Assembly: GCF_054482525.1 (NCBI RefSeq)
Contig: NZ_CM137006.1
Length of the DNA stretch: 64,000 bases
Strand: one strand, 5' to 3'
Both the position numbers and the translations under genes were made by a program. Every line of letters begins with the position of its first letter. Within the stretch, counting starts at the first letter, position 1. Under the pieces are notes generated by a model, which had not been told where the DNA came from, made no database searches, and saw only the letters and a list, made by a program, of their open reading frames with translations. Positions 9,275 to 63,804 of this stretch are shown one piece after another.

Positions 9275-9275
9275 C

Positions 9276-9893: not shown

Positions 9894-9903
9894 CGGTTAC
9901 TCC

Positions 9904-12518: not shown

Positions 12519-12532
12519 TTGTTCGGTATCAA
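12519..12532 (-). promoter_or_regulatory. FNR site of the dmsA promoter (TTGATACCGAACAA on the minus strand)
   Basis: The reverse complement reads TTGATACCGAACAA, which I recall as the dmsA FNR site; lies upstream of dmsABC. Confidence 0.45.
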
Positions 12533-12540
12533 AGGGAGAC

Positions 12541-12567
12541 AAAAAAAGCGCCCGCAGGCGCTTTTTA
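12541..12567. terminator. Bidirectional hairpin terminator after serS (AGCGCCCGCAGGCGCT flanked by A-run and T-run)
   Basis: Perfect palindrome flanked by AAAAAAA and TTTTT, 20 bp downstream of the serS stop. Confidence 0.6.
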
Positions 12568-12586
12568 GATTCAGAAAAATTGGGTA

Positions 12587-13900
<1,314 letters not shown>

Positions 13901-36508: not shown

Positions 36509-36622
36509 TCCGTGATGAATATCATGTTATTGTTAATGCCAGCGAATGTGGCGTTGAAGATCCGTTGCGCCGGTCCGGGTCCCGGTCATGATGACCGGGA
36601 CCACAGAGAGGCGATGGTTCTG

Positions 36623-39469: not shown

Positions 39470-39686
39470 CAGCTTTTCCTTACAGAGGGTGAATAAAAAA
39501 GCCGGTACCCACAAATGTGGATACCGGCAGGTACAAAACAGCATGGTCAGATAAAGTGGTTTTTCCCGGACATAAATGCTTCCCCTCTCTCATCCGCCAG
39601 AGAAGTATCAGTCCGTTGTGTGCAATTCCGTTCTGCATGATGAAGAGATTCAGCTGCCTTTTCGCAGACCATTAACCACTATAAAC

Positions 39687-39722
39687 GATCGATAGCAACG
39701 ATCGATACCTGTTTTATCGATC
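39687..39722 (-). promoter_or_regulatory. agn43 phase-variation switch: three GATC Dam sites (39687, 39700, 39719) within the presumptive OxyR operator
   Basis: aaacGATCgatagcaacGATCgatacctgttttatcGATCg located upstream of flu; triple-GATC architecture is the established Dam/OxyR switch of agn43. Confidence 0.7.
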
Positions 39723-39840
39723 GTTTTATTCTATTAACGACAAGGCGGTCACGCAAGAGAAACAGGAGGAGTATGAGGGGTTTGTGTCATGTTTTCAGTT
39801 GGTTAACGTAATGTTATCAGGCATTTCCCTGGCAGACTGT

Positions 39841-40713
39841 TCAGAAGAAAATCCAGTTCCATACAGCGCGGGCAACAGAGACCACCGTGTCACGGACGGC
39901 ACGCAGAACCGTACGGGCAACAGAGGCAACACAGACGCTCTCCGCCGTGTCAAATATCCGGTCCACCGCACCGGTAAACTGTTCACGGGCCTGAGCGCGG
40001 ACAGATTCCGTGCGCAGCTCGTCCTGCAGGCGGGTCATCAGGGGACTGGCGGCATGGTCGGGAAGTGCTGTCATTAGCGCACTGACCAGCGTATCCAGTT
40101 CCCAGCCGGTGCGGGCCGATACGGCAACAACCGGATGTACGGGCCGGAACAGACGGAATACCGCCTCCGTTTTCTCCCGAATGTTCTGTGCCTGTGCGGG
40201 AGAAGGCTGAATGCCGGCCATATCCCATTCATGGCAGGGCTCCGTTTTGTCGGCCTGCGTCACCACAAACAGCACCTGCTGATGTCCCCGGTGCAGGATG
40301 TGTCGCCAGAAATACTCATCCACAGACAGGGCGCGGTCATCGGCTTTAATCAGCCACAGCACCAGGTCCAGTTCGGGCAGAATGTCACGGTACAGGGCTT
40401 CATACTCTGCATCCCTGTCCCGGCTCTCGCCCACCCCGGGCAGGTCAGTGATAACCATGCTGTGACCATGGCCACTCAGACGGAAGCGCCGTACTTCCCG
40501 GGTGCCGGCGTGAACATCACTGACCGGGGTGACCTCCCCCTGAAACAGTGCATTACAGAGTGAGGATTTACCGGCCCCGCTTTTACCCATAATGCCAATC
40601 ACGGGTTCGTGACTGGTGAGTTTGCGCAGATGTTCCAGGATGTGACGGGAAAGCGAGTAAGGCAGGGAGGAGAGCGGTTTTTCAATTGCCTCAATGGCAT
40701 CAGACGGATTCAT
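39841..40713 (-). CDS. yeeP: YeeP/YfjP/YkfA-family GTPase (about 290 aa)
   Basis: P-loop GIMGKSGAGKSSLCNALF, DLPGVGES G3-like motif; start taken at MNPSD within ORF 39841-40752. Confidence 0.75.
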   Translation of the reverse strand: MNPSDAIEAIEKPLSSLPYSLSRHILEHLRKLTSHEPVIGIMGKSGAGKSSLCNALFQGEVTPVSDVHAGTREVRRFRLSGHGHSMVITDLPGVGESRDRDAEYEALYRDILPELDLVLWLIKADDRALSVDEYFWRHILHRGHQQVLFVVTQADKTEPCHEWDMAGIQPSPAQAQNIREKTEAVFRLFRPVHPVVAVSARTGWELDTLVSALMTALPDHAASPLMTRLQDELRTESVRAQAREQFTGAVDRIFDTAESVCVASVARTVLRAVRDTVVSVARAVWNWIFF

Positions 40714-41286
40714 ACATGTATTCCCGGTGAAAAAAGACAAAACCCCGCGCACCGGAAAAGTGGCGGGGGACTCACGGAGATAATATCTGCCTAAAATTAT
40801 TTGGAATGCAGGTATATGCAGCTAATTTGTATCGGCTCATTAGTACAGAACTAAACCTCATCTGACAGTCCGCTCTGTGCCAGGAGCAGACATTGCCAAC
40901 GTTATGACCCTCGATTACATCAAAGAGCCCTATAGCCGAAACCTGCACCATAGCCATCTCTGTAGAATTCGTCCTAGGGGCTTTTAACAGACCTAGTTGT
41001 ATGGAGCGGAAGGAAATATTAAAGCTCAAGGCGTCAGTCCAGTGCTGTCCTGTTTGCTTACCACACGAAAGAGTGCTGCTTGTACCTGCTAACTAATGGT
41101 ATGCGGAGTGAGGGGGGCGGGTAGAACCAAAAGCACTTACTACGTGTGGCGCTCTCCTGGAAGAGGAGACGTCGAAGTGATAACGCTAACAACAGTCTTA
41201 CTGGTGATGCAAATAATGCTAGCTGGTCTGGTTGCCATCAAGCAACTGACTGGACGCCCGTAAGGGATGGAGGAACTTGATTAAAG

Positions 41287-47813: not shown

Positions 47814-49147
47814 TGGTGGATTTAATGGTGAATGAGCAACGGTCGAGTACGGCGGGGAAAGATGTGCCTGCGGGGTATAAACTGACTGAGGTGGGCGTGA
47901 TTCCTGAGGATTGGGATTGCGTACCATTTGGTAATCTGTTTAAAACAAACACAAAGAAAAAAAAAGTCAGCGATTATGAGCTAGTTTCATTTATTGGGAT
48001 GCAAGATGTTAGTGAAGATGCACAATTAAAAAATAATACTCAACTTCCTTTTAAAGAAGTTAAAAGTGGTTTTACTTACTTTGAAAAAGGGGATGTTTTA
48101 TTAGCTAAAATAACCCCTTGTTTTGAAAATGGAAAAGGATGTCATACCGCTGATTTACCTACTAATGTAGGTTTTGGGAGTACGGAATTTCATGTATTAA
48201 GGGAAAATGAAGACTCCGATTCTCGCTTCATCTATTTTTGGACAACTGATAAAAAATTCAGAGCATCACTGGAATCTGAAATGGTGGGAAGTGCGGGACA
48301 CCGTCGTGTGCCGCTAGTTGCTATAGAAAAATATTTGATTCCATGTCCCCCAAATTTGCAAGAGCAAAGTGCTATTGCTGATTCATTATCTGATATTAAT
48401 AATTTTATTCTAGCTCTAGAAAAGCTTATCGTTAAAAAACAAGCCATTAAAACCGCTACTATGCAGCGACTACTGACTGGTAAAACCCGTTTGCCACAGT
48501 TTGCGTTGCGCAAAGATGGCTCTGCTAAGGGATATAAAAAGAGCGAGTTGGGGGAGATTCCTGAAGATTGGAATTGTATTAATCTTGGTGAGCTAGGTAA
48601 TTGCATTATTGGGTTAACTTACAAACCTGAAGATACATCTGATTATGGTACATTGGTATTACGCTCATCCAACATTCAAAATAATCACTTAGCTTATGAT
48701 GATAACGTCTTCGTCAGCATAGAACCACCTGAGCGCACAATTGTGAAAGAAGGTGATATCTTGGTATGTGTAAGAAATGGCAGTCGCCAACTTATTGGCA
48801 AATGCGCATTAATTGACAAAAATGCGCAGGGCTCAGCATTCGGTGCATTTATGTCAGTATTCCGAACTGATATATATGGATTTACATTTCACCAATTCCA
48901 GTCTGATATTATTCAAAAGCAAATCGCTGAAGTTATGGGTGCCACTATCAATCAGATAACTAACAAAGATATGTTGGGCTTTAAAATCCCATTACCTGAA
49001 AATACAGAAGAACAAGCCGCCATCGCCGCCATCCTCTCCGATATGGACAAGGAAATCCAGATCCTGCAACAGCGTCTGGACAAAACCCGCCAGCTTAAGC
49101 AAGGGATGATGCAGGAACTGTTAACCGGGAAAATCCGCTTAATATAG
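47813..49147 (+). CDS. hsdS: Type I restriction-modification specificity subunit HsdS (two AT-rich target-recognition domains)
   Basis: Conserved central and C-terminal repeats (…LLTGKTRLPQF… and …QELLTGKIRLI) flanking two variable AT-rich domains; ATG overlaps the hsdM stop (ATGA). Confidence 0.85.
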   Translation: MVDLMVNEQRSSTAGKDVPAGYKLTEVGVIPEDWDCVPFGNLFKTNTKKKKVSDYELVSFIGMQDVSEDAQLKNNTQLPFKEVKSGFTYFEKGDVLLAKITPCFENGKGCHTADLPTNVGFGSTEFHVLRENEDSDSRFIYFWTTDKKFRASLESEMVGSAGHRRVPLVAIEKYLIPCPPNLQEQSAIADSLSDINNFILALEKLIVKKQAIKTATMQRLLTGKTRLPQFALRKDGSAKGYKKSELGEIPEDWNCINLGELGNCIIGLTYKPEDTSDYGTLVLRSSNIQNNHLAYDDNVFVSIEPPERTIVKEGDILVCVRNGSRQLIGKCALIDKNAQGSAFGAFMSVFRTDIYGFTFHQFQSDIIQKQIAEVMGATINQITNKDMLGFKIPLPENTEEQAAIAAILSDMDKEIQILQQRLDKTRQLKQGMMQELLTGKIRLI

Positions 49148-49159
49148 AAGGGAAAGCAC

Positions 49160-49816
49160 ATGGCTTATGATTACAGCGCCAGCCTCAACCCGCAAAAAGC
49201 TCTGATCTGGCGTATCGTCCATCGGGACAATATCCCGTGGATTCTGGATAACGGGCTGCACTGCGGCAACAGTCTGGTGCAGGCGGAAAACTGGATCAAT
49301 ATCGGCAACCCGGAGCTGATCGGCAAGCGTGCCGGGCATCCGGTACCTGTCGGAACGGGCGGGACACTGCATGACTATGTGCCGTTTTATTTTACCCCCT
49401 TCTCGCCAATGCTGATGAACATCCACAGCGGGCGCGGCGGCATTAAGCAACGCCCCAATGAGGAGATCGTTATTCTGGTCAGCAACTTGCGAAACGTGGC
49501 AGCACACGACGTACCCTTCGTGTTTACCGACAGCCATGCTTACTATAACTGGACCAACTACTACACCAGTCTGGATAGTCTGGACCAGATCGACTGGCCC
49601 ATTTTGCAGGCACGGGACTTTCGCCGCGATCCAGACGATCCGGCTAAATTTGAACGCTATCAGGCAGAGGCGCTAATCTGGCAACACTGCCCGATCTCTC
49701 TGCTGGATGGGATAATTTGTTACAGCGAAGAGGTCAGGTTACAATTAGAACAATGGCTGTTTCAGCGTAATCTAACAATGTCCGTTCACACACGGGCTGG
49801 ATGGTACTTCTCATGA
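49160..49816 (+). CDS. darT: DarT-like DNA ADP-ribosyltransferase toxin (DUF4433, 218 aa)
   Basis: [38 protein letters not shown]... matches E. coli DarT as I recall it; followed by a macrodomain gene with overlapping stop/start. Confidence 0.8.
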
Positions 49817-50880
49817 TCACATATACACAAGGCAATTTACTGGACGCACCGGTGGAAGCTCTGGTGAATACGGTTAATACCGTCGGTGTCATGGGGAAAG
49901 GCATCGCGTTGATGTTTAAAGAGCGCTTCCCCGAAAATATGAAAGTCTATGCCCTCGCCTGCAAACAAAAGCAGGTGATCACCGGCAAAATGTTCATTAC
50001 CGAAACCGGGGAACTGATGGGACCGCGCTGGATTGTTAATTTTCCGACCAAACAGCACTGGCGCGCTGATTCCCGCATGGAGTGGATTGAAGATGGCTTG
50101 CAGGACTTACGCCGCTTTTTGATTGAAGAGAACGTGCAGTCCATCGCCATTCCACCACTGGGCGCAGGCAACGGTGGTTTGAACTGGCCGGACGTTCGGG
50201 CGCAGATTGAATCTGCCCTTGGCGACCTTCAGGACGTTGATATCCTGATTTACCAACCGACTGAAAAATACCAGAACGTTGCCAAAAGCACTGGCGTAAA
50301 AAAGCTCACTCCCGCCAGAGCCGCCATCGCTGAACTGGTGCGTCGCTACTGGGTATTGGGGATGGAGTGCAGCCTACTGGAAATCCAGAAACTGGCCTGG
50401 CTGTTACAACGCGCCATTGAGCAGCATCAACAGGACGATATCCTCAAACTGCGGTTTGAAGCTCACTATTATGGCCCCTATGCGCCCAATCTGAACCATC
50501 TGCTTAATGCGCTGGACGGCACCTATCTTAAAGCCGAGAAACGCATCCCGGACAGCCAACCGCTGGATGTGATCTGGTTTAACGATCAGAAAAAAGAACA
50601 CGTTAATGCGTATCTGAACAACGAAGCCAGAGAGTGGCTACCTGCGCTGGAGCAGGTCAGCCAGTTAATTGACGGCTTTGAATCGCCGTTTGGTCTGGAG
50701 TTGCTGGCAACCGTAGACTGGTTGCTGAGCCGTGGCGAATGTCAACCAACGCTGGATTCCGTTAAGGAAGGGCTGCACCAGTGGCCTGCGGGCGAACGCT
50801 GGGCCAGCCGTAAGTTGAGGCTGTTTGATAATAATAATCTGCAATTTGCCATTAACCGCGTAATGGAGTTCCATTGCTGA
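49813..50880 (+). CDS. darG: DarG-like macrodomain antitoxin (about 355 aa; alternative start at 49801)
   Basis: N-terminal macrodomain [39 protein letters not shown]; ATG overlaps the darT stop (ATGA). Confidence 0.8.
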
Positions 50881-50898
50881 GGGTTTAAGGAGCGCCTT

Positions 50899-53800
50899 TT
50901 GAGTACCGTGGGCCAGCGCGAACGCGCCACACAGCAGCGTCTGATTCAGTTTTTTGTTGAAGATTTAGGTTACCGCCATCTGAGTCACCGCACCGGGTAC
51001 ACCGGGAACAGCAACATCGACACTAATATACTGAGCGCGTGGCTAAAACGGCGCGGCGTTAATGATACGTTGATCACCCGGGCGTTGCGGCAACTGGATT
51101 CCGCCGCCGCTCTGGGCGAAGGCAAAAAACTCTATTACGCCAATAAAGAGGTCTATCGCCTGCTGCGTTACGGCGTGAAAGACAAAGAAGGCGCAGGCGA
51201 GCAGAACCAAACCGTGTGGCTGATTGACTGGGCCAACCCACAAGCCAATGATTTCGCCATCGCCGATGAGGTGACGGTCAAAGGCGAGTACTGCAAGCGC
51301 CCGGATCTGGTGCTGTACGTTAACGGCATTGCGCTGGGCGTGATTGAACTTAAGCGTTCGTCAGTGCACGTCAGCGAAGGCATCCGGCAGAATCTCGATA
51401 ATCAAAAGAAAACCTTTATCCGCGATTTCTTCACCACTATGCAGTTAGTGATGGCGGGCAACGATACGCAGGGCCTGCGCTACGGCACCATCGAAACCCC
51501 GGAAAAATACTATCTGGAGTGGAAAGAAGATAATCCAGGCGACTATACACATAAACTCGACTTTCATTTAAGTCGTCTGTGTAGCAAATCCAGGCTGTTG
51601 GATATCGTCCATAATTACATTGCCTTTGATGTCGGGGTGAAAAAACTCTGCCGCCATAATCAGTTCTTCGGCGTCGAGGCGGCTAAACAACATATTGCCC
51701 GTCGTGAAGGCGGTATTATCTGGCACACACAGGGATCGGGTAAAAGCCTGACGATGGTCTGGCTGGCGAAGTGGATCCGTGAAAATGTGCCAAACTCCCG
51801 CGTGTTGATTGTGACTGACCGCACCGAACTGGATGAACAGATCGAAAGCGTGTTTATGGGCGTGAATGAAGATATTTATCGCACCTCCAGCGGCAACGAT
51901 CTTATCGCAACGCTCAATCATCCTAACCCGTGGCTCATTTGCTCGCTGGTGCATAAATTTGGTCGTCGCAGCGAAGCTGAAGACAATGCGGCTACCGACG
52001 CCTTTATCACCGAATTACAGCAGTCCCTGACGAAAACATTCCGCGCCAAAGGCGATCTGTTTGTTTTTGTGGACGAGTGCCACCGCACACAATCCGGCAA
52101 GCTGCATAACGCCATGACTGCCATTCTGCCGGACGCCCTGTTTATCGGTTTTACCGGCACACCGCTGATGAAGAAAGATAAGAAGAAGTCGGTTGAGGTG
52201 TTCGGCCCTTATATCCATACCTATAAATTTGATGAAGCGGTGGCCGACGGTGTGGTGCTGGATCTGCGCTACGAGGCACGCGATATTGACCAGTATCTGA
52301 CATCAGAGAAAAAGGTCGATGACTGGTTTGAAGCCAAGACTCGCGGTTTGTCGAATTTAGCCAGGACCCAGCTTAAGCAAAAGTGGGGATCAATGCAGAA
52401 GCTGCTCTCCAGCAAGTCGCGGCTGGAGCAGATCGTTAACGACATTTTGCTGGATATGGATACCCGTCCACGCCTGATGGACGGGCGCGGCAACGCCATG
52501 CTGGTATGCAGCAGTATCTATCAAGCCTGCAAGGTTTACGAGATGTTCAGCCAGACCGAGCTGGCAGGAAAAGTAGCGATTGTGACCAGCTATCGCCCCG
52601 ATGCCGCCAGCATCAAAGGCGAAGAAACGGGCGAAGGGTTAACGGAGAAACTCTCTAAACACGCCACCTATCGTAAAATGTTGGCTGACTATTTTGAACA
52701 AAGTGAAGAGAAGGCCGCCGCACGCATTACCGAGTTCGAGCGGGAAATGAAACAGCGTTTTATTGAAGAGCCGGGGCAAATGCGCCTGCTTATCGTGGTG
52801 GATAAGCTGCTGACTGGCTTTGACGCGCCGTCCGCCACCTATCTCTACATTGATAAAACCATGACCGACCATACGCTGTTTCAGGCGATTTGTCGGGTGA
52901 ACCGGCTGGACGGTGAGGATAAAGAGTATGGCTATATTATCGATTATAAAGATCTGTTCCGTTCGCTGGATAAAGCGATTACCGATTACACCACGGGCGC
53001 GTTTGATGATTACGATCGGGACGATGTGGCCGGGTTGCTGAAAGACAGGCTGGAGCAGGCGCAACTGGATCTCGACAGCGCGCTGGAGATGGTTCGCAGC
53101 TTATGTGAACCCGTCAAAACCCCGCGCAGCCTGCTGGACTATCAGCACTATTTTTGCGGTGAATCAGGAGAGAATCAGACTTCGTTAAACGAAAAAGAGG
53201 CGCTGCGCCTGACATTTTACCAGTGCGTCGCCCGTCTGCTACGCGCTTATGCCAGCATCGCCAATGAAATGCCGGAAGCAGGCTACACTGCCGAAGAGGT
53301 AGAGAGCATTCGCGCCGAAGTCGCTGAATTCGAAAAACTGCGCTATGAGATTAAGCTGACCAGCGGCGATCTTCTGGATATGAAGCGCTTTGAACCCGCT
53401 ATGCGTCATTTACTGGATATGTATGTTCGCGCCGATGGTAGCGAAGTGCTGATGGATTTTGAAGAGTTAAGTCTGATTGAACTGATTGTCGAGAAAGGCT
53501 TGGCGGCGACCGTCGCCCTGCCGGATGATATCCGTAATAATCAGGATGCGATGGCGGAAACCATCGAAAACAACGTGCGCAAAACCATCGTGGATGAAAA
53601 CCCGGTTAACCCAAAATACTATGGACGCATGTCGCAGCTGCTGGATGAACTGATTACCCTTCGCCGACAAAATGCGCTCAATTATCAGCAGTATCTGGAA
53701 CGTATCCGCGATTTGTGTAAACAGGTCATCCGCCCGGAGCAAACCGCCGGAGCGTGCTACCCTGCCACCATGGATACACAAGCAAAGCGCGCCTTCTATG

Positions 53801-53994
53801 ATAACTTCGGCCACGACGAGGTACTGGCGACCCGCATAGATACGACGATTCGCTATACCAAAAGGGCAGAGTGGATTGGCGATCGTTTTAAAGAACGGGA
53901 AATTGCCAACGCATTACGTGAAGAGACCGCCAGCTATAATATTGATATTGATGAGGTGATAGCGCTTGCCCGTCAGCAGAAGGAATATCACTGA
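50899..53994 (+). CDS. hsdR: Type I restriction enzyme endonuclease/helicase subunit HsdR (1031 aa, TTG start after AAGGAG)
   Basis: Helicase motif I HTQGSGKSLTMV, motif II LFVFVDECHRTQSG; size typical of HsdR. Confidence 0.88.
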   Translation: MSTVGQRERATQQRLIQFFVEDLGYRHLSHRTGYTGNSNIDTNILSAWLKRRGVNDTLITRALRQLDSAAALGEGKKLYYANKEVYRLLRYGVKDKEGAGEQNQTVWLIDWANPQANDFAIADEVTVKGEYCKRPDLVLYVNGIALGVIELKRSSVHVSEGIRQNLDNQKKTFIRDFFTTMQLVMAGNDTQGLRYGTIETPEKYYLEWKEDNPGDYTHKLDFHLSRLCSKSRLLDIVHNYIAFDVGVKKLCRHNQFFGVEAAKQHIARREGGIIWHTQGSGKSLTMVWLAKWIRENVPNSRVLIVTDRTELDEQIESVFMGVNEDIYRTSSGNDLIATLNHPNPWLICSLVHKFGRRSEAEDNAATDAFITELQQSLTKTFRAKGDLFVFVDECHRTQSGKLHNAMTAILPDALFIGFTGTPLMKKDKKKSVEVFGPYIHTYKFDEAVADGVVLDLRYEARDIDQYLTSEKKVDDWFEAKTRGLSNLARTQLKQKWGSMQKLLSSKSRLEQIVNDILLDMDTRPRLMDGRGNAMLVCSSIYQACKVYEMFSQTELAGKVAIVTSYRPDAASIKGEETGEGLTEKLSKHATYRKMLADYFEQSEEKAAARITEFEREMKQRFIEEPGQMRLLIVVDKLLTGFDAPSATYLYIDKTMTDHTLFQAICRVNRLDGEDKEYGYIIDYKDLFRSLDKAITDYTTGAFDDYDRDDVAGLLKDRLEQAQLDLDSALEMVRSLCEPVKTPRSLLDYQHYFCGESGENQTSLNEKEALRLTFYQCVARLLRAYASIANEMPEAGYTAEEVESIRAEVAEFEKLRYEIKLTSGDLLDMKRFEPAMRHLLDMYVRADGSEVLMDFEELSLIELIVEKGLAATVALPDDIRNNQDAMAETIENNVRKTIVDENPVNPKYYGRMSQLLDELITLRRQNALNYQQYLERIRDLCKQVIRPEQTAGACYPATMDTQAKRAFYDNFGHDEVLATRIDTTIRYTKRAEWIGDRFKEREIANALREETASYNIDIDEVIALARQQKEYH

Positions 53995-54710
53995 TGCCAA
54001 TCATGCAAATAGGCTCGTTACACTTGCTGGTCAACCGTAAGGCGATTAAGAATCTGCATATCAGCGTGCTGCCGCCTGATGGCAAAGTACGCGTTTCAGC
54101 GCCGGAACATATGACGGAGACGGCGATTCGTATGGCGGTTGCTTCACGCTTTCGCTGGATCAGAAAACAGCAGCAGGATTTCGCCAGACAGCCTCGTCAA
54201 TCAGAGAGGGAAATGGTCAGCGGAGAGTGCCACTATCTTTGGGGCCGAAGATATCGCCTACTTGTGATTGAGCGTCACGGGCGTCACGAAGTAAAAGTTG
54301 CAGGAAATAATAAGCTCCAGCTTTATGTTCAACCAGGAACCCGTGATGAAAATAAGGCATTGGCGTTAAGTGAATTTTATCGACATGAACTAAAACAGCA
54401 GGTGGCTAAGCTTCTACCTGAATGGCAGGACCGAATCGGTGTTCCCCTAACATTCTGGGGCATCAAAAAGATGAAAACCTTTTGGGGCACCTGTAACACT
54501 ACAACAAAACGAATCTGGCTCAATCTGGAGCTAATTAAGAAGCCGCCGGAGTGTCTGGAGTATATTCTGGTGCATGAACTGGTTCATCTTCTGGAACGTC
54601 ACCATAATGCTCGCTTCCGGTTGCATATGGATCGGTTTATTCCTGACTGGCGTGAGCGTCGGGATTTGTTAAATAATATGCCGTTAGCGTTTGAGGCATG
54701 GGAGTATTGA
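53994..54710 (+). CDS. Zinc metallopeptidase-like protein (YgjP/DUF45/M48-like, HExxH), start overlapping the hsdR stop
   Basis: HELVHLLERHH motif; ATG at 53994 overlaps the hsdR TGA. Confidence 0.7.
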   Translation: MPIMQIGSLHLLVNRKAIKNLHISVLPPDGKVRVSAPEHMTETAIRMAVASRFRWIRKQQQDFARQPRQSEREMVSGECHYLWGRRYRLLVIERHGRHEVKVAGNNKLQLYVQPGTRDENKALALSEFYRHELKQQVAKLLPEWQDRIGVPLTFWGIKKMKTFWGTCNTTTKRIWLNLELIKKPPECLEYILVHELVHLLERHHNARFRLHMDRFIPDWRERRDLLNNMPLAFEAWEY

Positions 54711-55079
54711 TTGAGCCTGTAACTGTTTTTTGTCCATAAATTAACCTTCATTTGATGCTGGATTGAACATATCAAAATCAGACAATTACACAAATCTATG
54801 TACAGGCTCTTCAATTTGTTTTTGATCGCTGATGTGACTGACAACAAACGCTCACGGAACACTAAATCCCGCTCTTCAGACGTTAACTCGCCTCGCTCAA
54901 TAAGCTCTCTGATAGAATCTCGTGGCGTTGGCGTGACTACTTCAAAACAAAAAGTCTCACCATTTTTCTCGGCGACAAAGTCTGGTCCAGCATCCTTGCT
55001 TTTAATGTCGCTAAAGCCCATCTCCATAAGGTAGCCTGAGTTTAACGGACACTCCTTCGTAAGGACGCTGTAAGCAGAA

Positions 55080-55659
55080 ACGCAAGTTCAGAGCGACTAC
55101 GAACTCGAACCACAATCTGCCAGTTGCGCCAAATCTGCTGAACCAGACGTTCGCTCCTACAGCACCAAATCAGGTCTGGGTGGCGGACCTGACGTATGTT
55201 GCCACACAGGAGGGATGGTTGTACCTCGCTGGCATCAAAGATGTTTATACGTGCGAAATTGTCGGCTACGCCATGGGAGAGCGCATGACAAAAGAGCTGA
55301 CAGGTAAAGCCCTGTTTATGGCGCTCAGGAGCCAGCGCCCACCTGCCGGGCTAATCCATCACTCTGATCGAGGTTCACAGTACTGCGCATACGATTACCG
55401 GATCATACAGGAGCAGTTTGGTCTGAAAACGTCAATGTCGCGTAAAGGTAACTGTTACGACAACGCTCCGATGGAAAGCTTCTGGGGAACGCTGAAAAAT
55501 GAGAGCCTGAGCCACTATCGTTTTAATAACCGGGATGAAGCCATCTCAGTAATACGGGAATACATTGAGATTTTCTACAATCGTCAGCGTCGTCACTCTC
55601 GTCTGGGGAATATCTCCCCGGCAGCCTTCAGGGAAAAATATCATCAGATGACTGCTTAA
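55080..55659 (+). mobile_element. IS3-family transposase fragment (C-terminal DDE/integrase part of orfB only)
   Basis: ...PNQVWVADLTYVATQEGWLYLAGIKDVYTCEIVGYAM...HSDRGSQYCAYDY...NCYDNAPMESFWGTLKNE... is the DDE-domain C-terminal half; no N-terminal half, orfA or inverted repeats seen. Confidence 0.75.
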
Positions 55660-55901
55660 AAAAGAACAAATGGTAGTGTCCGCTATTGCCAGTACACCTC
55701 AGGTATCAAAAAGCGATAGATGCAGCTAATACACGACATAACCAAGAAATAAATCATTAAACGACAACACTTAATACCATATTGTGAAGATGTTCAGACA
55801 TGGCGGAATTCCCCTATTCTTTGTTGGCACTTACAACAGACTATATTCCGCCATATCTGTCTTTATTGTGTATAAACCATCGATACTGATGTTTGATAGT
55901 G

Positions 55902-57200
55902 CTAAATAATCATTGGCGCAATCACAAAGCCTAATGCCACTCCAGCAATAATTCCCCCCAACCCAGGCAGCATAAATGGATGATTCAGCACATATTTGCC
56001 TACACGAGTTGTGCCGGTAGTATCAAATTCCATGGCAGCCAGTGATGTTGGATACGTTGGCAGTACAAATACTCCGGTGACGGCCACATAGGACGCCAGA
56101 ATTGCCCAGGTGGGCACGTCAAGCGCGACGGCAAGCGGGATAATTAACGGCGTGGTCGCACCTTGCGAGTAGAGCAGCGCGCAAGTGCCAAAAAGAACCA
56201 GCGCCAACAACATCGGATACGCCTGCAAAATATCACCAGCAATATCTTTAATCTCAGTTAAATGCGCATCAATAAAAGTGGTGCCTAACGTTACAATGCC
56301 GAGAATTACCGCCAGCGAACTCATCCCCGCACGGAATGTGGAGGTGAGAATAATGGCATCGGTCGCCGTCTTACACAGCACCACCATCAGGCAGGCGGCA
56401 GAGAGCATACAGATAATAATGATATCGCGTGTTTCCATCGGTTTACCGATATCAAAACCCGGACGCAGTTGGGGGAAGGCAGCAAGAATAACAATAGCGA
56501 CCGTCGCCAGCAGGAACAATCCGACGGAGAGCGTCGCACCTGGCTTGATGCTGCTATTATTCTCGTATTTTTGCACCAGTCCTTTTTGCAGGCGCTCAAG
56601 GTAGACCTCGTCATCCTGCAACTCACATCCCTGTCGGGAAGCAATAAAAGCGGCGACCATCGCGGCAGCAAAAGAGGTGGGAAGACATACCGACATCACT
56701 TGAATAAAACTGACACCGTTTACCTCCATAATAGTGAGCATAGCCGCCATTGCGGCGCTGATCGGCGAACCGGAAATCGCAACCTGCGAAGCGACAACCG
56801 AACCGGCAAGCGTGCGGGAAGGACGGATACCGGACTCTTTCGCCACTTCAGCAATCACCGGCAGCGTGGAAAAAACAATAAACCCAGTACCGGCCATAAT
56901 GGTCATAGACCAGGTGATAATCGGCGCGATTATGTTGATATATTTCGGGTTACGCCGCATAAAATTACCAGCGACGCATACCAGATAATCCATTCCGCCT
57001 GCGGCCTGTAAGGCTGAGGCCGCCACAACAACGGTCATAATAATCAGGATCACGTCGACTGGCGGCGACCCCATAGGCAGACCAAATCCCAGAGTCAGAA
57101 TGGCAAGCCCAAGCCCGCCACATAAACCAATACCGATTCCCCCCTGGCGAATACCAAAAAATATTGCACCAAGTACTACGATAATTTCCAGCCAAACCAT
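55902..57200 (-). CDS. DcuA/DcuB-family anaerobic C4-dicarboxylate transporter homologue (432 aa)
   Basis: Strong similarity to DcuA as I recall it (…NPKYINIIAPIITW…LPVIAEVAKE…LPTYPTSLAAMEFDTTGTTRVGKYVLNHPF…). Confidence 0.75.
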   Translation of the reverse strand: MVWLEIIVVLGAIFFGIRQGGIGIGLCGGLGLAILTLGFGLPMGSPPVDVILIIMTVVVAASALQAAGGMDYLVCVAGNFMRRNPKYINIIAPIITWSMTIMAGTGFIVFSTLPVIAEVAKESGIRPSRTLAGSVVASQVAISGSPISAAMAAMLTIMEVNGVSFIQVMSVCLPTSFAAAMVAAFIASRQGCELQDDEVYLERLQKGLVQKYENNSSIKPGATLSVGLFLLATVAIVILAAFPQLRPGFDIGKPMETRDIIIICMLSAACLMVVLCKTATDAIILTSTFRAGMSSLAVILGIVTLGTTFIDAHLTEIKDIAGDILQAYPMLLALVLFGTCALLYSQGATTPLIIPLAVALDVPTWAILASYVAVTGVFVLPTYPTSLAAMEFDTTGTTRVGKYVLNHPFMLPGLGGIIAGVALGFVIAPMII

Positions 57201-57265
57201 AATGTTCTCCGTTATAAATATAATTCAGTTAAAAGCGAATAACTTTCTGGCTGCGATTTAAATGA

Positions 57266-57985
57266 TTATTGGGTTAAAAGATAATGTTTACCGACACGAT
57301 TTTCGTACCATTTTATTCCGGCACGAACGAGTGACGCCGTTGAGTCAATATAGCGGGAAGGCTGCTCTTTAACGGCTTGCGCCAGAATAACCGGAATTTC
57401 TGTACAACCAAGAACAAGGATTTCTGCACCGCGAGAAAATAATATTTCAGCCTGCTCATTCATCAACTTTTGTGCGTGCGCTATATTGCCAGCTTTCAAG
57501 GAATAAATACTTTCCATCACTTTTTTCTGACCGTCGGCATCGGGGCTGACACAGGTAAATCCCAGCGACTCAATTCCTTTTTGGTATAAACCCATATATA
57601 GCGTGGCATTGGTGGCTAACAAGCCAATTCGGGTTTTACCACAGGCGCGAACTTCATTGATCGTAGTTTCTACGATACTTAATATATCAATATGACAAGC
57701 ATCTTTTAATTCTTTGAACCAGTAATGCGCGGTATTACAGGGAATAACAATACATTCTGCCCCGGCATCTTCCAGCTTATGCATATAATCACGCATAACG
57801 GGTAATGGTGAACGCCCATGATGCATTAATGCATCGGTACGGTCAGGAATATCCGGGATCGAAGAAATAATTAAAGGAATATGTTCCTGATCACATTGTG
57901 CAGCGGTAAAAGTTACAAATTTATTAAACAGGTCGACGGTAGCTGCCGGCCCCATTCCACCGAGTACACCAATTAAACCTTTCAC
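57266..57985 (-). CDS. Asp/Glu racemase-family protein (putative aspartate racemase, 239 aa)
   Basis: MKGLIGVLGGMGPAATVDLFNKF... and ...LVLGCTEIP... characteristic of Asp/Glu/hydantoin racemases. Confidence 0.7.
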   Translation of the reverse strand: MKGLIGVLGGMGPAATVDLFNKFVTFTAAQCDQEHIPLIISSIPDIPDRTDALMHHGRSPLPVMRDYMHKLEDAGAECIVIPCNTAHYWFKELKDACHIDILSIVETTINEVRACGKTRIGLLATNATLYMGLYQKGIESLGFTCVSPDADGQKKVMESIYSLKAGNIAHAQKLMNEQAEILFSRGAEILVLGCTEIPVILAQAVKEQPSRYIDSTASLVRAGIKWYENRVGKHYLLTQ

Positions 57986-58329
57986 AATACCTGCCTCTCA
58001 AAACGTTAATGACAATACGCGGTAAATAACTGCTGCTCTCTTTTTTAACAGTCGAAATGGGCGATGAGAAATGCAAGGTTGTACAAGGCGATGCAAGACA
58101 CGCATGATGCAGCTATGGAACATTCCGCTTATTCACCATAGTGATGATGTATTCTGGTTATCTGACGGAAAAATTTCGTTTTTTTGGCGAAATGTGATAT
58201 CAACGTCAATACCGGAAATGAAGGAGTTATGCACAAAACGAATGATAAAGGCCAGGTTGTGCTAATTGAGAACATTATTTTTATTGCCGGGATGTTTTAT
58301 TATGTCTTTGGATTGAAAATACAGGTGCC

Positions 58330-59274
58330 ATGGTAATGAAGAATATCGAGACAAAATGGTTATACGATTTCCTGACACTGGAAGCCTGTCGCCATTTTTC
58401 TCAGGCGGCAAAAGAGCGTAATCTTTCGCAACCCGCATTCAGCCGACGAATTAAGGCGCTGGAGGCAGCGATCGGCGTTGTTTTATTCGATCGCACGACC
58501 ACCCCTTTACAATTAACCGAAGAGGGCAAGCTCTTTCATTCCCAGACTCGCAGCTTATTACAGCAGCTTGAATGCAATTTGGGGGAGTTAAACGGCCAGA
58601 GTTTACTCGGCGTTCCCAACATTAAAATTGCAGCCGCGCACTCACTATCCCTGAGCGTATTACCCAAACTGGTGCATTCACTTACCGCCTATGGCGGAGA
58701 ATTTGTCTATCATGTTGAAGCAATTGATGTTGTCCAGGCCGTAAATACGTTACGCGAAGGCAAGAGTGACTTTATTATTTCGTTTCGCGATGAAGATCTT
58801 ATGCAATCGCCTTTTTGCTGCCTGAAACTGTTTGAATCTGAGTTGTACCCGGTATGTGCCGCCGACGCACAGGGGCACCCTGTATTCGATATCACTCAGC
58901 CCCAGGTTCCTTTGCTCAACTATACCGCCACATCTTATATGGGCAGGTTGGTCAATCGTCATCTGGCAGAGGTTGGAGGTATTACCGGGCGCACGATATT
59001 TATCTCTTCGATGAGCGAGTTATTAAAGAATATGGCGCTCAACGGATACGGCATTGCCTGGTTACCGATCTGGTCGATCGTCGATGAACTACAGACCAAA
59101 CGTCTGATATGCCTTGATGCTGCTAAATTGACAGTCCCCATTCAGGCTTATATTTACCGAATGAACACCCGACTGAATAGAACCGCCGAGAACCTCTGGC
59201 GTATTTTACAGGAACATATGCCAGACGATTTAATCCAGCAGATATCAATGGAAGAGCCAGCACGCCGCAATTGA
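58330..59274 (+). CDS. LysR-family transcriptional regulator (314 aa), divergent from the racemase-transporter pair
   Basis: N-terminal wHTH (…LEACRHFSQAAKERNLSQPAFSRRIKALEAAIGVVLFDR…) and LysR substrate-binding region. Confidence 0.8.
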   Translation: MVMKNIETKWLYDFLTLEACRHFSQAAKERNLSQPAFSRRIKALEAAIGVVLFDRTTTPLQLTEEGKLFHSQTRSLLQQLECNLGELNGQSLLGVPNIKIAAAHSLSLSVLPKLVHSLTAYGGEFVYHVEAIDVVQAVNTLREGKSDFIISFRDEDLMQSPFCCLKLFESELYPVCAADAQGHPVFDITQPQVPLLNYTATSYMGRLVNRHLAEVGGITGRTIFISSMSELLKNMALNGYGIAWLPIWSIVDELQTKRLICLDAAKLTVPIQAYIYRMNTRLNRTAENLWRILQEHMPDDLIQQISMEEPARRN

Positions 59275-59391
59275 CGACGTGCAATAAATATCCTCCGGCA
59301 TAGCCGGAGGTTTTTCAAATGCGCCTATAAGGCTCTCTTACCAGCCGCGCCCTAACAGGCGCACACGATCTGACATTTGCATCCAACTTCG

Positions 59392-59769
59392 TTACTTACG
59401 GTCCGTAAACGGGCTGCCCGGACAGGGAATCGATAACTGCTCTCCCATTTTATCCTCTTCAAGCTGGTGCTTTATGTAATCCTGTATCTTCGCCGTGTTC
59501 TTACCCACTGTATCGACGTAGTCCCCCCTGCACCAGAACTCCCTGTTCCTGTATTTGAATTTCAAATCACCAAACTGCTCGTAAAGCATCAGACTGCTTT
59601 TCCCTTTCAGATATCCCATAAACCCGGATACGCTCATTTTGGGCGGGATCTCCACAAGCATATGGATATGATCTGCACAGCATTCAGCTTCCAGAATCCG
59701 TACGCTTTTCCACTCACACAGCTTTCTCAAAATACTGCCTGTTGCTCTACGCTTCTCTCTGTAGAACAC
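59392..59769 (-). mobile_element. IS200/IS605-family TnpA remnant (N-terminally truncated)
   Basis: ...FYREKRRATGSILRKLCEWKSVRILEAECCADHIHMLVEIPPKMSVSGFMGYLKGKSSLMLYEQFGDLKFKYRNREFWCRGDYVDTVGKN... matches IS200 TnpA but lacks the N-terminal ~27 aa. Confidence 0.75.
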
Positions 59770-60620
59770 CTGTCTTCGGTATTTTGGCGCAAAAAACTAT
59801 GTGATATTTACAGTTCCATCGGGTGTGCGCTAAGCTCTTTTCGTTCCCCATTGGGACCCCCTTTTGATTTCTTGTTTGACACTTGCAGTTGCCAGACCGC
59901 AAGGTGTTTTAACAAATCAAAAGGGGTTTTAATAACTGGCTCAAAGCTGAAAGCTTTCCGGAACCCCCAGCCTAGCTGGGAGTTTTCTGTGCACAAAAAA
60001 ACCCTGTAAAAAACTTACAGGGGTATAAGGCTTAGCCTAACTTGCGTCTGTTGCATGGTGCCGGGTGCCTCCCGGTGAATTCAGTCGGTGTCACTGAACC
60101 CGCGTAGGCTTCGCTCATAACATAATAAATGCTATGTACACCAGTCGCCCCACCGCACAGGGGGATTCACCACACGGCGCACTTTTTAACAAATATCCCT
60201 CCGGCCAGACAATAATAAACATAATGAATTGTGATCTTCTTAACAGTTTTAAAGTGTTACAGATAACATGCCAAGTAATTGCTTGTTTTTTCATCAATAG
60301 GAAGACCACACCAACAACCCCAGCTATCAGCCAGAACCGACATTATCCGGCTGATAAAATCTACCATCACTCCAACACCAATCACCGCCTGTGCCAGATC
60401 GCGTTTCTCAAACTTTTTAATCTCTGTTGCCACTCTGCGGGTTTTCTTTTTGAATTTTGAAAATACCAAATATCGTGACGTTTCTTTGGGGGATGAGCTA
60501 TCAAGCGGGAACGATCTGCCTACAGAGAAAGTCAGCCAGACCACTCTGCAAATTATCCCCGAAAGGCTCTGTGGCTGATATGCGCCGGGCATGGCGCAAT
60601 GGGCCAGTGGCAGTGTGTGA

Positions 60621-61462: not shown

Positions 61463-62476
61463 TTATTCAATACCTGTGGTGACTGTAAAAGTGCGCGTTT
61501 GCTGCGGTGCAACCTGAATCAGCGTGCCATTACGTTGCGCGGCAAGATACCCCTCAGGTCGACAGGTTGCTGGTAATGCAAAGGCGGCTACCTGTTGCTC
61601 GCCGTTATAAAGGATCCAGCGTGTCACATAATTTAGTTCAGCACTGGAGAAACGAGTAACAAACGTAGTGCCATCGGGAGCGATCATGCGAAACTCTGGC
61701 TGATCTGTGTAAGCGTCCAGTTTGTCTGCAAAGAAGACTATTTCTGGATCATAAAATTCCGGTTGATTCAGCGTCGACAGAGAGGCTTCTCCCTGCATAA
61801 TCCGTTGATTAAACGCCAGCCACTGGGCGGTGGGATTAACATGCGAAGGTACTGATTCACGCAACCTTAATATTTCGTCCGGTATATTCTGGCTGAACGT
61901 AGCATTTGGTATATATGCATAATTCATGTGGCACATATATTGTAGTGGCATATCTACAGAAGCCAGATTGGTTACGGCCATCTTAATATCGAACAATGTA
62001 GAGGATTTGTGAAGGACCACTGTTGGCTGAGCCAGATAATGATGCCCGAACCCCATTACATACTCGTAACGCCCGGTAAGGCGTAACATATCTCCCTCTA
62101 ATTCCATCCATGCTTCATCCATCGCGGCACAGGCCATTTCACCGTGTAGCAGATGAGTATCTTCCGCAGATGGGCAGCCATTAGCCAGCAAACCTGAATG
62201 AAAGGCAAAACAGCCATAGGTCTCTATCACCTCTGTCGCCGGTTTAGGCTGGCGAAACATATTGCACATGGTGAGACTGTGTCCATCAAATTGCGCATCC
62301 CAAATCATCTGCCCCATCCAGGGAAGAATAATTAAATGTCCACGACTGTTTGCAATTTTAAGCCCCTCGACACCACTGTCATAGCGAAAAGACGTGACAG
62401 TAAAATCACTATTTTCCAGCAAGATACGAGGTTTTTCGCCAAAAAGCGCCCGCCACAAATAAATACGCGTACTCAT
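61463..62476 (-). CDS. deoX: DeoX-like protein (337 aa; mutarotase-like protein of deoxyribose operons)
   Basis: Follows a FucP-like permease and a pfkB-type kinase in the order of the deoK-deoP-deoX operon of Salmonella and pathogenic E. coli; assignment from gene order and size. Confidence 0.45.
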   Translation of the reverse strand: MSTRIYLWRALFGEKPRILLENSDFTVTSFRYDSGVEGLKIANSRGHLIILPWMGQMIWDAQFDGHSLTMCNMFRQPKPATEVIETYGCFAFHSGLLANGCPSAEDTHLLHGEMACAAMDEAWMELEGDMLRLTGRYEYVMGFGHHYLAQPTVVLHKSSTLFDIKMAVTNLASVDMPLQYMCHMNYAYIPNATFSQNIPDEILRLRESVPSHVNPTAQWLAFNQRIMQGEASLSTLNQPEFYDPEIVFFADKLDAYTDQPEFRMIAPDGTTFVTRFSSAELNYVTRWILYNGEQQVAAFALPATCRPEGYLAAQRNGTLIQVAPQQTRTFTVTTGIE

Positions 62477-62487
62477 AACGATTCTCC

Positions 62488-63804
62488 TCAGGACTCTGTG
62501 ACTTCAGCCAGTGCATTACGTACTTTGCTTTCACGCCAGAAGTAGACACCGACATAGACAAAACAGAGCATAGAAACCAGGAATGAAAGCTGTAGTGAGT
62601 GGAACATATCTGCAATATACCCCTGAATTGCCGGAACCACCGCTGCGCCAACAATAGCCATAACAATGACTGCTCCTGCCATTTCTGTATGTTGGTTATC
62701 AACTGTATCCAGTGTTCCTGCATAGATCGTCGCCCAGCAAGGGCCAAACAAAACACTTACCAGGACGGCGACATAGACCGCGCTGAAACTTGGAGCCAGT
62801 GCAACATATGCCAGAAACAGCGCCCCTATAACGGAATAGAGAATTAGGACTTTTTCCGGATTAAAACGTGTCATAAGGATGTTGGCTATAAACTTGCCAA
62901 TAAAGAAGCAGGCAAAGCTGTAGACCATGAAGTTTGAAGCATCACGTTCGTTGATATCGCCCAACTCCAGTGCCAGACGGATGGTAAATGACCATACTGC
63001 GACCTGCATACCCACATAAAGGAATTGAGCCACAATACCACGACGAAAGCGCGAATTTTTAGCCAGATAGCGCAGCGTATCCATTGCTGACGGGCGTTTA
63101 TGGTGACTTGTCTGTGCCACTTTACAGGTTGGGAAGCGGGTTAAAAGGAACAACACCATGACCACAACAAGAATCATAATCATATACTTATACGGTTCAA
63201 GGGTGTTCTCTAACATCAGCACCTTAAAGTTGTGAATTTGCTCGGCGTTCATTCCGGACATCTGCTTCTCAAGGCTTTCCCCCTCGGAGAAAACCAGATA
63301 TTTGCCCAATAAAATACCAGACGCAGCACCAATCGGATAAAAGGTCTGGCTGATATTGAGCCGCAATGTGGCATAGGCTTTTGGACCGATCATTGAACTG
63401 TATGTGTTCGCTGCAGTTTCAAGGAAACTCAGGCCAATCGCAATCGCAAAAATAGCTGCAAGGAACATAGTGTAGGTTGCCATATGCGAGGCAGGGAAAA
63501 AAAGTGTACAACCACCAATATACAGCGTCAGGCCAATTAAAATTGCCACCTTATAACTGGTCTTTTTAATCACAAGGGATGCTGGTATTGCAATTAAAAA
63601 ATAACCTCCATAAAATGCGCTCTGCACCAATGCTGAAGCAAAGTTACTTAGCGAAAATACACTTTTGAATTGAGTGATTAATATGTCATTTAATGCAGCT
63701 GCGCATCCCCATAGCGGGAATAAACACGATAACAAAATAAACTGGAACAAGGGAGTCTTATTCAGATACCCATCAGGCATCTGAATGATGTTTTTATCGT
63801 TCAT
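62488..63804 (-). CDS. deoP: FucP-family MFS sugar permease, DeoP-like (438 aa)
   Basis: 12-TM MFS protein with FucP-like N-terminus; between kinase and deoX-like genes. Confidence 0.6.
   Translation of the reverse strand: MNDKNIIQMPDGYLNKTPLFQFILLSCLFPLWGCAAALNDILITQFKSVFSLSNFASALVQSAFYGGYFLIAIPASLVIKKTSYKVAILIGLTLYIGGCTLFFPASHMATYTMFLAAIFAIAIGLSFLETAANTYSSMIGPKAYATLRLNISQTFYPIGAASGILLGKYLVFSEGESLEKQMSGMNAEQIHNFKVLMLENTLEPYKYMIMILVVVMVLFLLTRFPTCKVAQTSHHKRPSAMDTLRYLAKNSRFRRGIVAQFLYVGMQVAVWSFTIRLALELGDINERDASNFMVYSFACFFIGKFIANILMTRFNPEKVLILYSVIGALFLAYVALAPSFSAVYVAVLVSVLFGPCWATIYAGTLDTVDNQHTEMAGAVIVMAIVGAAVVPAIQGYIADMFHSLQLSFLVSMLCFVYVGVYFWRESKVRNALAEVTES

Follow-up and report, generated by a model that had tools for sequence, protein, structure and literature searches.

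A horizontally carried racemase and Dcu-family transporter module on a serX island is very probably the D-aspartate utilisation unit of the Shigella SRL PAI

What substrate do a Dcu-family transporter, a putative aspartate racemase and a divergently encoded LysR-type regulator handle when they are carried together on a genomic island? We addressed this question for the window, a 64,000-nucleotide stretch of contig NZ_CM137006.1 (RefSeq assembly GCF_054482525.1), for which a sequence-only reading had proposed uptake and stereo-conversion of D- or L-aspartate, or of a related acid, under anaerobic conditions. We consider it highly probable that the three genes form a horizontally carried unit for D-aspartate utilisation and detoxification, and that this is the unit known as orf7-orf8-orf9 on the SRL PAI of Shigella flexneri.

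The open reading frame listing placed the three genes exactly at the limits that had been given, and the protein families were also as named, with Pfam scores of 446 bits for DcuA_DcuB (PF03605, residues 5-363), 152.5 bits against a gathering score of 31 for Asp_Glu_race (PF01177), and 68 and 80 bits for HTH_1 and LysR_substrate. Because these scores far exceed the curated cut-offs, the genes are real and chance reading frames are ruled out. The racemase and transporter genes lie on the same strand with a gap of 65 bp, in which a terminator scan found no terminator-like site. The regulator gene is divergent on the plus strand, as had been described, with a spacer of 344-350 bp to the racemase gene; its reading frame from 58330 encodes 314 residues, and RefSeq and the orthologues start two codons later. 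The features are collected in Table 1.

Table 1. Features of the module and its borders in the window.
Feature	Positions	Strand	Evidence
IS600 (IS3 family) transposase remnant, left module boundary	55066-55659	+	Pfam rve/rve_2/rve_3 on ORF 55180-55659
Counterpart of the orf8-orf9 fragment that complemented in the published work, Shigella SRL PAI	55702-58130	-	cloning primers
Dcu-family transporter (SRL orf9), 432 aa	55902-57200	-	PF03605, NCBIfam Dcu subfamily models, orf9 primer
PLP-independent two-cysteine racemase (SRL orf8), 239 aa, GTG start	57266-57985	-	PF01177, invariant residues
Divergent regulatory spacer	57986-58335		sequence
Two TTGCAT motifs, 20 bp apart, kept in three enteric genera	58071-58096	-	alignment columns about 300-335
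17-bp box ATTCGTTTTGTGCATAA	58227-58243	-	invariant block, alignment of four genera
HypT-like LysR-type regulator (SRL orf7)	58336-59274	+	HTH_1 + LysR_substrate, NCBIfam HypT
GC-rich hairpin between two T-runs, resembling a terminator of the regulator gene	59292-59310		terminator scan
Frameshifted IS200 (tnpA pseudogene 59392-59851 and 5' leader), right module boundary	59392-59984	-	PF01797

The same genes in the same order are known from the SRL PAI of S. flexneri YSH6000 as orf7 (LysR-like), orf8 (aspartate racemase) and orf9 (DcuA-like) (Luck et al. 2001; PMC6980539). All four primers that Henriquez et al. used in 2020 (PMC6980539) match the window with 0 mismatches, namely the orf8-orf9 cloning primers (forward at 58110-58130, reverse at 55702-55725), the primer for orf8 alone (57939-57955) and the orf9 primer (57183-57200). 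The exact protein sequences of the module are also on record from S. flexneri, and the module of E. coli O104:H4, which was named in that study (PMC6980539), is 99.8% identical. According to the same study, loss of the island abolishes both respiration of and growth on D-Asp, and an orf8-orf9 fragment restores them in S. flexneri and S. sonnei. In whole-cell HPLC of supernatants D-Asp disappeared and L-Asp appeared, and no D-amino acid besides D-Asp differed in phenotype arrays (PMC6980539). Without the module D-aspartate is unusable and inhibits growth, the native transport systems of E. coli and Shigella are insufficient for its use, and island-free strains can already grow on L-Asp (PMC6980539). 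The proposal of aspartate uptake and stereo-conversion is supported by this published growth and D-to-L conversion with primer-matched DNA. The D-aspartate function was already published in 2020, and the exact primer matches tie the window to the published clone; because of that publication, our finding adds no new biology.

Two details of the published constructs bear on how they are read. The 'orf8 alone' construct begins at Met11 (primer at 57939-57955) and lacks the ten N-terminal residues, including the invariant I5, G6, L8, G9 and G10. The encoded racemase is truncated, and the failed complementation therefore leaves the need for the transporter unproven. The complementing fragment contains neither the regulator gene nor the conserved 17-bp box. 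A vector promoter may drive it, if the insert lies in the orientation expected from the pUC18 map.

The island setting had been proposed as well, and it was borne out. The tRNA-Ser(GGA) gene at 27453-27540 is serX, which lies beside ghrA/csg in the identical strain AH65, and it is followed by CP4-type island genes; Ag43 is found on the island too. The module is thus located on a genomic island at serX, which is also the integration site of the SRL PAI; Ag43 and CP4-type genes are a further likeness to that island. Insertion sequence remnants flank the module on both sides. At the corresponding positions of AH65, RefSeq labels them 'IS3-like element IS600 family transposase, incomplete' and 'IS200/IS605 family transposase, frameshifted', and the IS200 leader contains an Rfam match to STnc490 (143 bits, 59861-59984). 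The hairpin behind the regulator gene adjoins the IS200 pseudogene and is probably the end palindrome of IS200. To the left of the module, the window has a type I restriction-modification operon with DarT/DarG and an M48 peptidase, whereas strain RIVM_C029670 has the fec operon and IS1 instead, so that the neighbours differ from those of the fec-linked E. coli copy. The island is a mosaic relative.

The distribution of the module is also that of an island rather than of the core genome, since the full SRL-type module is present in only 347 of the 5426 complete E. coli genomes (~6%). Any form of the module occurs in about 11% of them, O104:H4 included. A second E. coli lineage has ~85% nucleotide identity (233 records have their best match at 80-90% identity). 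Its context, read from one chromosome and one IncF-type plasmid, consists of the divergent regulator and a racemase-dcu-aspA series, extended by dcu-ansB in the chromosomal copy. A Campylobacteraceae genome carries aspA-dcu-racemase-asparaginase, with aspA scoring 774 bits (cut-off 681). The presence of aspartate ammonia-lyase and asparaginase beside these homologous pairs is independent agreement from gene context with the aspartate reading. The trio of regulator, racemase and transporter also recurs in Citrobacter, Providencia, Proteus, Actinobacillus and one further genome, where the surrounding genes are unrelated.

The transporter scored 454-580 bits with the NCBIfam Dcu subfamily models, and a PDB sequence search found no related solved structure. 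It is 49% identical to K-12 DcuA over the full length and 34% to DcuB. DcuA is a carrier of L-aspartate and C4-dicarboxylates. The transporter could accordingly be imagined as a mere DcuA paralogue that redundantly exchanges L-aspartate and C4-dicarboxylates, with the racemase working from L to D and providing D-aspartate to be exported, used in signalling or built into the cell wall; the reversible racemase reaction and the identity to DcuA would fit such a role. Yet the window transporter shares 93%, 84% and 69% identity with its racemase-linked counterparts in Citrobacter, Providencia and Actinobacillus, respectively, and such transporters form a separate conserved group with 69-93% identity among themselves and only 45-49% to DcuA, which travels with the racemase. 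K-12 encodes its core dcuA-aspA elsewhere, and the window transporter belongs to the same family but is not an orthologue of DcuA by either identity or locus. The published cultures consumed D-Asp while L-Asp appeared, and island-free strains needed no module to use L-Asp for growth (PMC6980539). We regard the L-to-D alternative as very improbable and infer that the transporter is an importer of D-aspartate.

The racemase also matched TIGR00035 asp_race (187.7 bits against a cut-off of 93.1). The aspartate racemase of Pyrococcus horikoshii (1JFL, 2DX7) has the same fold family with 43% identity. Cys83 and Cys194 are invariant in an alignment that includes 1JFL (Cys82 and Cys194 there), as are R49 and K164. 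The equivalent Arg48 and Lys164 of the Pyrococcus enzyme hold the side-chain carboxylate of the substrate. The archaeal enzyme differs in being stand-alone, without a linked Dcu transporter or LysR regulator. The closest solved structure is 3S7Z, a 'putative aspartate racemase' of Salmonella Typhimurium that is encoded beside hypT/yjiE and is 54% identical to the window racemase; its Citrobacter amalonaticus orthologue adjoins a HypT-type regulator. The 3S7Z racemase is a paralogue at the core hypT-iadA-yjiG-yjiH locus, which has a TRAP instead of a Dcu transporter and lacks the conserved 17-bp box. By the residue matches together with the published D-Asp phenotype, the orf8 product is very probably an aspartate racemase.

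Recent RefSeq records, however, name the gene cuyB, and the protein scored 249 bits with NCBIfam NF052483 'racemase_CuyB' against a cut-off of 190. If this name were taken literally, the module would import and racemise cysteate, and the product would serve as substrate for a D-cysteate sulfo-lyase encoded at another locus, as a source of sulfur or carbon. Cysteate is isosteric with aspartate, and Yamauchi and colleagues are said to have found in 1992 that a Streptococcus aspartate racemase accepts cysteate too; in the literature that we searched, there was no report of cysteate activity of aspartate racemases. We calibrated NF052483 against the proven Pyrococcus aspartate racemase and other homologues. 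A fragment of the Pyrococcus enzyme scored 233.9 bits, Salmonella 3S7Z 228.9, and all homologues tested 225-250 bits. Because a proven aspartate racemase passes, the cut-off cannot separate the two activities. CuyB of Bilophila wadsworthia (PMC11193023) belongs to the same PF01177 two-thiol family, but the characterised cuy clusters, that of Bilophila included, encode CuyA (D-cysteate sulfo-lyase), RidA and a transporter of the SDF family, none of which lies beside the window module. No CuyA-type PF00291 gene was found near the module, whether around the window copy or in the nine further contexts inspected; such neighbours as there are encode aspartase and asparaginase, and the published phenotype is for D-aspartate. 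TauE and RidA near the Actinobacillus module were considered as a clue to sulfonates and rejected, since both are part of the housekeeping aroC-mepA-yfcA block, as the locus L013 confirmed. The substrates described for Bilophila CuyB do not include aspartate (PMC11193023), and overlapping specificity is therefore possible. We consider a cysteate pathway improbable, and the label 'cysteate racemase' is over-extended for this gene.

How the module is controlled is a question for the spacer. A consensus scan of the spacer found no sigma-70 promoter, and the promoters therefore deviate from the consensus, which is typical of activator-dependent transcription. A sigma-54 promoter was rejected by eye, the TTGCAT repeats misfitting the GG-N10-GC spacing; these two motifs are candidate regulator or promoter elements. 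Within 57986-58335 there was neither a CRP-type site nor an FNR-type site (TTGAT-N4-ATCAA, up to two mismatches). The cultures behind the published phenotypes were shaken, and their protocol mentions no anaerobic step (PMC6980539). The suggestion of anaerobic conditions, which derives from the family name only, is unsupported by these cultures and by the spacer. Upstream of the racemase gene, an Rfam search over 55500-60200 revealed neither a riboswitch nor a leader; its only matches were STnc490 and STnc100, both associated with IS200. The pattern ATTYGTWTTNTGCATAR occurs once each in seven of eleven loci, all seven with the module; neither the K-12 hypT locus nor the locus L010 contains it. 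The distance from the 17-bp box to the downstream regulator start is 92-114 nt in every genus, and the conservation of the box makes it a candidate LysR-type binding site.

Is the regulator the hypochlorite-stress regulator HypT, as its label hypT implies, and merely adjacent to an operon that it does not regulate? It scored 407.6 bits with NCBIfam HypT (NF007488; equivalog cut-off 301), all racemase-linked regulators tested pass the same model with 374-415 bits, and the complementing Shigella fragment functions without the regulator. K-12 HypT (YjiE/QseD) and Salmonella HypT (5YDW) are of the same LysR subfamily. Met123, Met206 and Met230 are the oxidation-sensing residues for HypT activation. 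Two of these three, M206 and M230, align with M204 and M228 of the regulator, but M123 aligns with Leu118, and the N-terminal Cys4 segment of HypT is missing. The identity to K-12 HypT is only 59% over the full-length alignment. The core hypT-iadA exists separately in 5389 of the 5426 E. coli genomes, at another locus (iraD-hypT-iadA). A HypT-type regulator adjoins the racemase in every module-bearing genus, divergently in most, with the conserved box at a fixed distance from its start. A mere neighbour with the function of HypT appears unlikely to us. By sequence, the regulator is best described as a paralogue of core hypT, for which the label 'HypT' seems over-extended.

A wider, tentative idea concerns the HypT subfamily as a whole. 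A HypT-model regulator is present in every racemase-Dcu module examined, the core hypT of K-12 adjoins the isoaspartyl dipeptidase gene iadA, and the hypT locus of C. amalonaticus also has the racemase paralogue and the TRAP transporter alongside. The subfamily might, though we would not favour it at present, consist primarily of cognate regulators of D-aspartate and isoaspartate salvage genes, the island copy sensing D-aspartate or a related breakdown product of damaged proteins via the 17-bp box, and the hypochlorite role in K-12 would then be secondary or derived.

For the module as a D-aspartate unit, we propose that the DcuA-like membrane protein would import D-aspartate and that the cytoplasmic racemase would interconvert D- and L-aspartate by two-base proton transfer with Cys83 and Cys194, a chemistry known for the racemase family. 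L-Aspartate would then enter central metabolism by the established routes via the host aspartase or transaminase. The HypT-like regulator probably acts on the conserved spacer box to control the racemase-transporter operon, and the effector of the regulator would most plausibly be D-aspartate or a related compound.

The names 'cysteate racemase' and 'HypT' extend too far at this locus, and the published racemase-only control used a truncated gene. Aged proteins, other bacteria and host tissue are sources of D-aspartate, which the module lets some E. coli and Shigella strains consume.

The three open reading frames proposed from sequence alone at 55902-59274 have exactly the limits given by the ORF listing, and their families match those assigned by Pfam. 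The racemase and transporter genes probably form one operon because they lie on the same strand with a 65-bp gap, in which a terminator scan found no terminator-like site. A spacer of about 350 bp separates them from the divergent regulator gene, for which RefSeq and the orthologues place the start at 58336, two codons after the start in the ORF listing. All four primers printed in a study of the Shigella flexneri SRL pathogenicity island (PMC6980539) align to the window without mismatch, and the exact module protein sequences are also recorded from S. flexneri. Judged from these sequences, the module is the already studied SRL-island orf7-orf9 module. Loss of the island abolished respiration and growth on D-aspartate, and cloned orf8-orf9, encoding the racemase and the DcuA-like transporter, brought both back in S. 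flexneri and S. sonnei, with D-Asp vanishing from the medium and L-Asp appearing (Henriquez et al. 2020, PMC6980539). The same paper describes orf7 as a LysR-like gene and names E. coli O104:H4 as a carrier; we find 99.8% identity for the O104:H4 module. The uptake and stereo-conversion of aspartate put forward in the sequence-only reading are, through the primer match to the published D-Asp clone, essentially right and have already been published: a 2001 description of the genes was followed by the assignment of their function in 2020. Its anaerobic qualifier finds no support, as the published growth tests used continuous shaking with anaerobic incubation not mentioned (PMC6980539), and the spacer (57986-58335) contains no FNR- or CRP-like site at up to two mismatches, nor any Rfam element. 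The Dcu family name is historical.

Coordinates of the module genes, neighbouring features and published primers in the window
Feature	Position	Strand	Remarks
Type I restriction-modification operon	45375-54710 region		M 45375-47813, S 47807-49147, R 50899-53994
DarT/DarG DNA ADP-ribosylation toxin-antitoxin pair	49160-50880		nested between S and R
M48/YgjP-like metallopeptidase	53994-54710		overlaps stop codon of R
IS600 remnant	55066-55659		ahead of the three module genes
Cloning reverse primer	55702-55725		0 mismatches
Transporter gene	55902-57200	-	432 aa; Pfam DcuA_DcuB, 446 bits
orf9 primer	57183-57200		0 mismatches
Racemase gene	57266-57985	-	239 aa, GTG start; Pfam Asp_Glu_race, 152 bits
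orf8 primer ATGGGGCCGGCAGCTAC	57939-57955		0 mismatches
Cloning forward primer	58110-58130		0 mismatches
Regulator gene	58330-59274	+	314 aa; Pfam HTH_1 + LysR_substrate
IS200, frameshifted	59392-59851		after the three module genes
Rfam STnc490 match	59861-59984	-	143 bits; IS200 leader region

The published claim that both genes are required is only half supported, because the 'orf8 alone' construct starts at Met11 (ATG at 57955) and the true start is the GTG at 57985. The construct is without ten conserved N-terminal residues (window 57939-57985); the N terminus reads MK..IG.LGGMGP in every homologue aligned, two crystallised enzymes among them, with I5, G6, L8, G9 and G10 invariant. The shortened racemase is probably inactive. 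Both 'orf8 alone' and 'orf9 alone' failed to complement (PMC6980539). The former failure is uninformative on the transporter requirement, given the probable inactivity of its product; the latter does show that the racemase is required. The complementing fragment extends 145 bp upstream of the racemase start and contains neither the regulator nor the conserved 17-bp box at 58227-58243. Given the arrangement of pUC18, the insert is probably co-directional with the vector lac promoter.

Among solved structures, the racemase is closest to 3S7Z, a Salmonella 'putative aspartate racemase' (54% identity), and to 1JFL, the aspartate racemase of Pyrococcus horikoshii (43% identity). In an alignment including both, the catalytic C83 and C194 are invariant, and likewise R49 and K164, the equivalents of which in the Pyrococcus enzyme hold the substrate side-chain carboxylate. 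The newer RefSeq annotation of the gene is 'cuyB, cysteate racemase'; other RefSeq genomes list the same or a near-identical protein as 'amino acid racemase' or 'aspartate/glutamate racemase family protein'. The racemase scores 249 bits against the NCBIfam equivalog NF052483 (cut-off 190). CuyB was defined in 2024 in Bilophila wadsworthia, where it is clustered with the D-cysteate sulfo-lyase CuyA, an SDF-family transporter and RidA, and the substrates reported as tried do not include aspartate (PMC11193023). When NF052483 was calibrated against known proteins, the proven Pyrococcus aspartate racemase, represented by a 203-residue fragment, reached 233.9 bits, the Salmonella 3S7Z protein 228.9 bits, and all homologues scored fell within 225-250 bits. 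Since a proven aspartate racemase exceeds the cut-off, the model cannot separate the two activities and the cuyB name carries no weight; the equivalog label over-reaches. CuyA-type (PF00291) genes are absent from the surroundings of the module, both in the window and in the other genome contexts examined, where the informative neighbours, if any, are aspartate enzymes. Cysteate is very unlikely to be the main substrate; being isosteric with aspartate, it may well serve as a secondary one. Aspartate is the best reading of the physiological substrate.

The transporter shares 49% identity with K-12 DcuA and 34% with DcuB, compared with 93%, 84% and 69% with the racemase-linked transporters of Citrobacter freundii, Providencia and Actinobacillus rossii, respectively. 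These identities place it in a distinct DcuA-like group travelling with the racemase and mark it as something other than a copy of dcuA. Shigella without the island grew on L-Asp and not on D-Asp (PMC6980539), a pattern that fits the need for a dedicated D-Asp carrier and, given the Met11-start orf8 control, is no proof of it. We infer that D-aspartate is the transporter substrate. In the overall picture, which we consider likely, D-aspartate would enter via the DcuA-like carrier, and the two-cysteine racemase, whose residues are seen here and whose activity is backed by the published whole-cell data, would equilibrate it with L-aspartate. L-aspartate would then feed central metabolism through host aspartase or transaminase, an established pathway, and the HypT-like regulator would probably turn the operon on upon substrate. 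An aspartase gene forms part of the module in a second E. coli lineage. A biosynthetic L-to-D role is highly unlikely.

The regulator scores 407.6 bits against the NCBIfam HypT model (cut-off 301) and is named hypT in RefSeq. However, it shares only 59% identity with K-12 HypT, has Leu where HypT has Met123, and lacks the N-terminal Cys4 segment, and true hypT is a separate gene in nearly all genomes (5389/5426). We regard it as unlikely that the regulator is an unrelated hypochlorite sensor. In the spacer alignment of four genera, an invariant block, ATTYGTWTTNTGCATAR (58227-58243, minus strand), lies 92-114 nt upstream of the regulator start in each. A search for its pattern gave a single occurrence in each of seven of the 11 loci compared, all seven carrying the module, and none in the hypT locus of K-12 or of Citrobacter amalonaticus. 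The three enteric genera aligned also share a pair of TTGCAT motifs spaced 20 bp apart (58071-58096). Both the block and the motifs are candidate regulator-binding sites.

The sole tRNA in the window, tRNA-Ser(GGA) at 27453-27540, is identified as serX because it adjoins ghrA and the csg genes in strain AH65, whose module is 100% identical. Beyond serX, the AH65 annotation lists typical island genes (DUF4942, CbtA/YeeU, an antirestriction protein, Ag43 and a GTPase). After these come the type I restriction-modification operon, DarT/DarG included, and the M48-type peptidase. The DUF4942/CbtA-YeeU/antirestriction/Ag43 block occupies the serX-proximal island end (27453-40752); in the SRL island, it sits at the end far from serX. 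This difference, together with the absence of an annotated integrase gene adjoining the tRNA in 27453-40752, suggests that the island is inverted or composite. Directly to the right of the module, an Rfam STnc100 sRNA match (128 bits, minus strand) stands beside STnc490 (59861-60198 for both). A sugar-utilisation cluster comprises an aldose 1-epimerase family protein (DUF4432) and a FucP-type permease (61463-63804 onward), and extends in AH65 to a ribokinase and a DeoR regulator. When the exact module coordinates were queried against 5426 complete E. coli genomes, 585 contained some match; in 347 the match spanned the entire module, always with an identity of about 99% or higher, whereas the core hypT-iadA locus was present in 5389. 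With the serX island genes and the flanking IS600 and IS200, this prevalence upholds the proposed island rather than core-genome location: the module is accessory and island-borne.

The second E. coli lineage has about 85% nucleotide identity, and for 233 records the best match falls at 80-90% identity. In the one chromosome (EC1515) and the one IncF-type conjugative plasmid (p399-2; L017, local 4371-9309) inspected, the regulator diverges from racemase-dcu-aspartate ammonia-lyase. The EC1515 version (L016, local 1028-10309) is a larger aspartate/asparagine catabolic island, racemase-dcu-aspA-dcu-ansB (L-asparaginase 2), with dcuR close by. A Campylobacteraceae genome has the order aspA-dcu-racemase-type II asparaginase, its aspA scoring 774 bits where the equivalog cut-off is 681. 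A HypT-like regulator diverges from the racemase-transporter pair in C. freundii, Providencia, Proteus hauseri and A. rossii, and lies on the same strand in one further genome. The flanks are unrelated from genome to genome, and all regulators scored pass the HypT model. In the fish pathogen Edwardsiella ictaluri (L015, local 6001-9595), the racemase and HypT-like regulator are kept beside an IS605-type element and the Dcu transporter is absent, suggesting that the module is decaying.

Core hypT itself adjoins the isoaspartyl dipeptidase gene iadA, with yjiG-yjiH, in K-12 (L002, local 9379-12681). The C. amalonaticus hypT locus (L010, local 5499-11112) also holds, where K-12 has iraD, a TRAP transporter and a racemase paralogue that, to judge by our racemase alignment, is orthologous to Salmonella 3S7Z. 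HypT-type regulators seem to be generally linked to aspartate-racemase genes. The remaining interest lies in the regulator and in this recurrent link to aspartate-racemase and isoaspartyl-peptidase genes, because of which we tentatively raise the possibility that the HypT family is at its root a regulator of D-Asp/isoAsp salvage.
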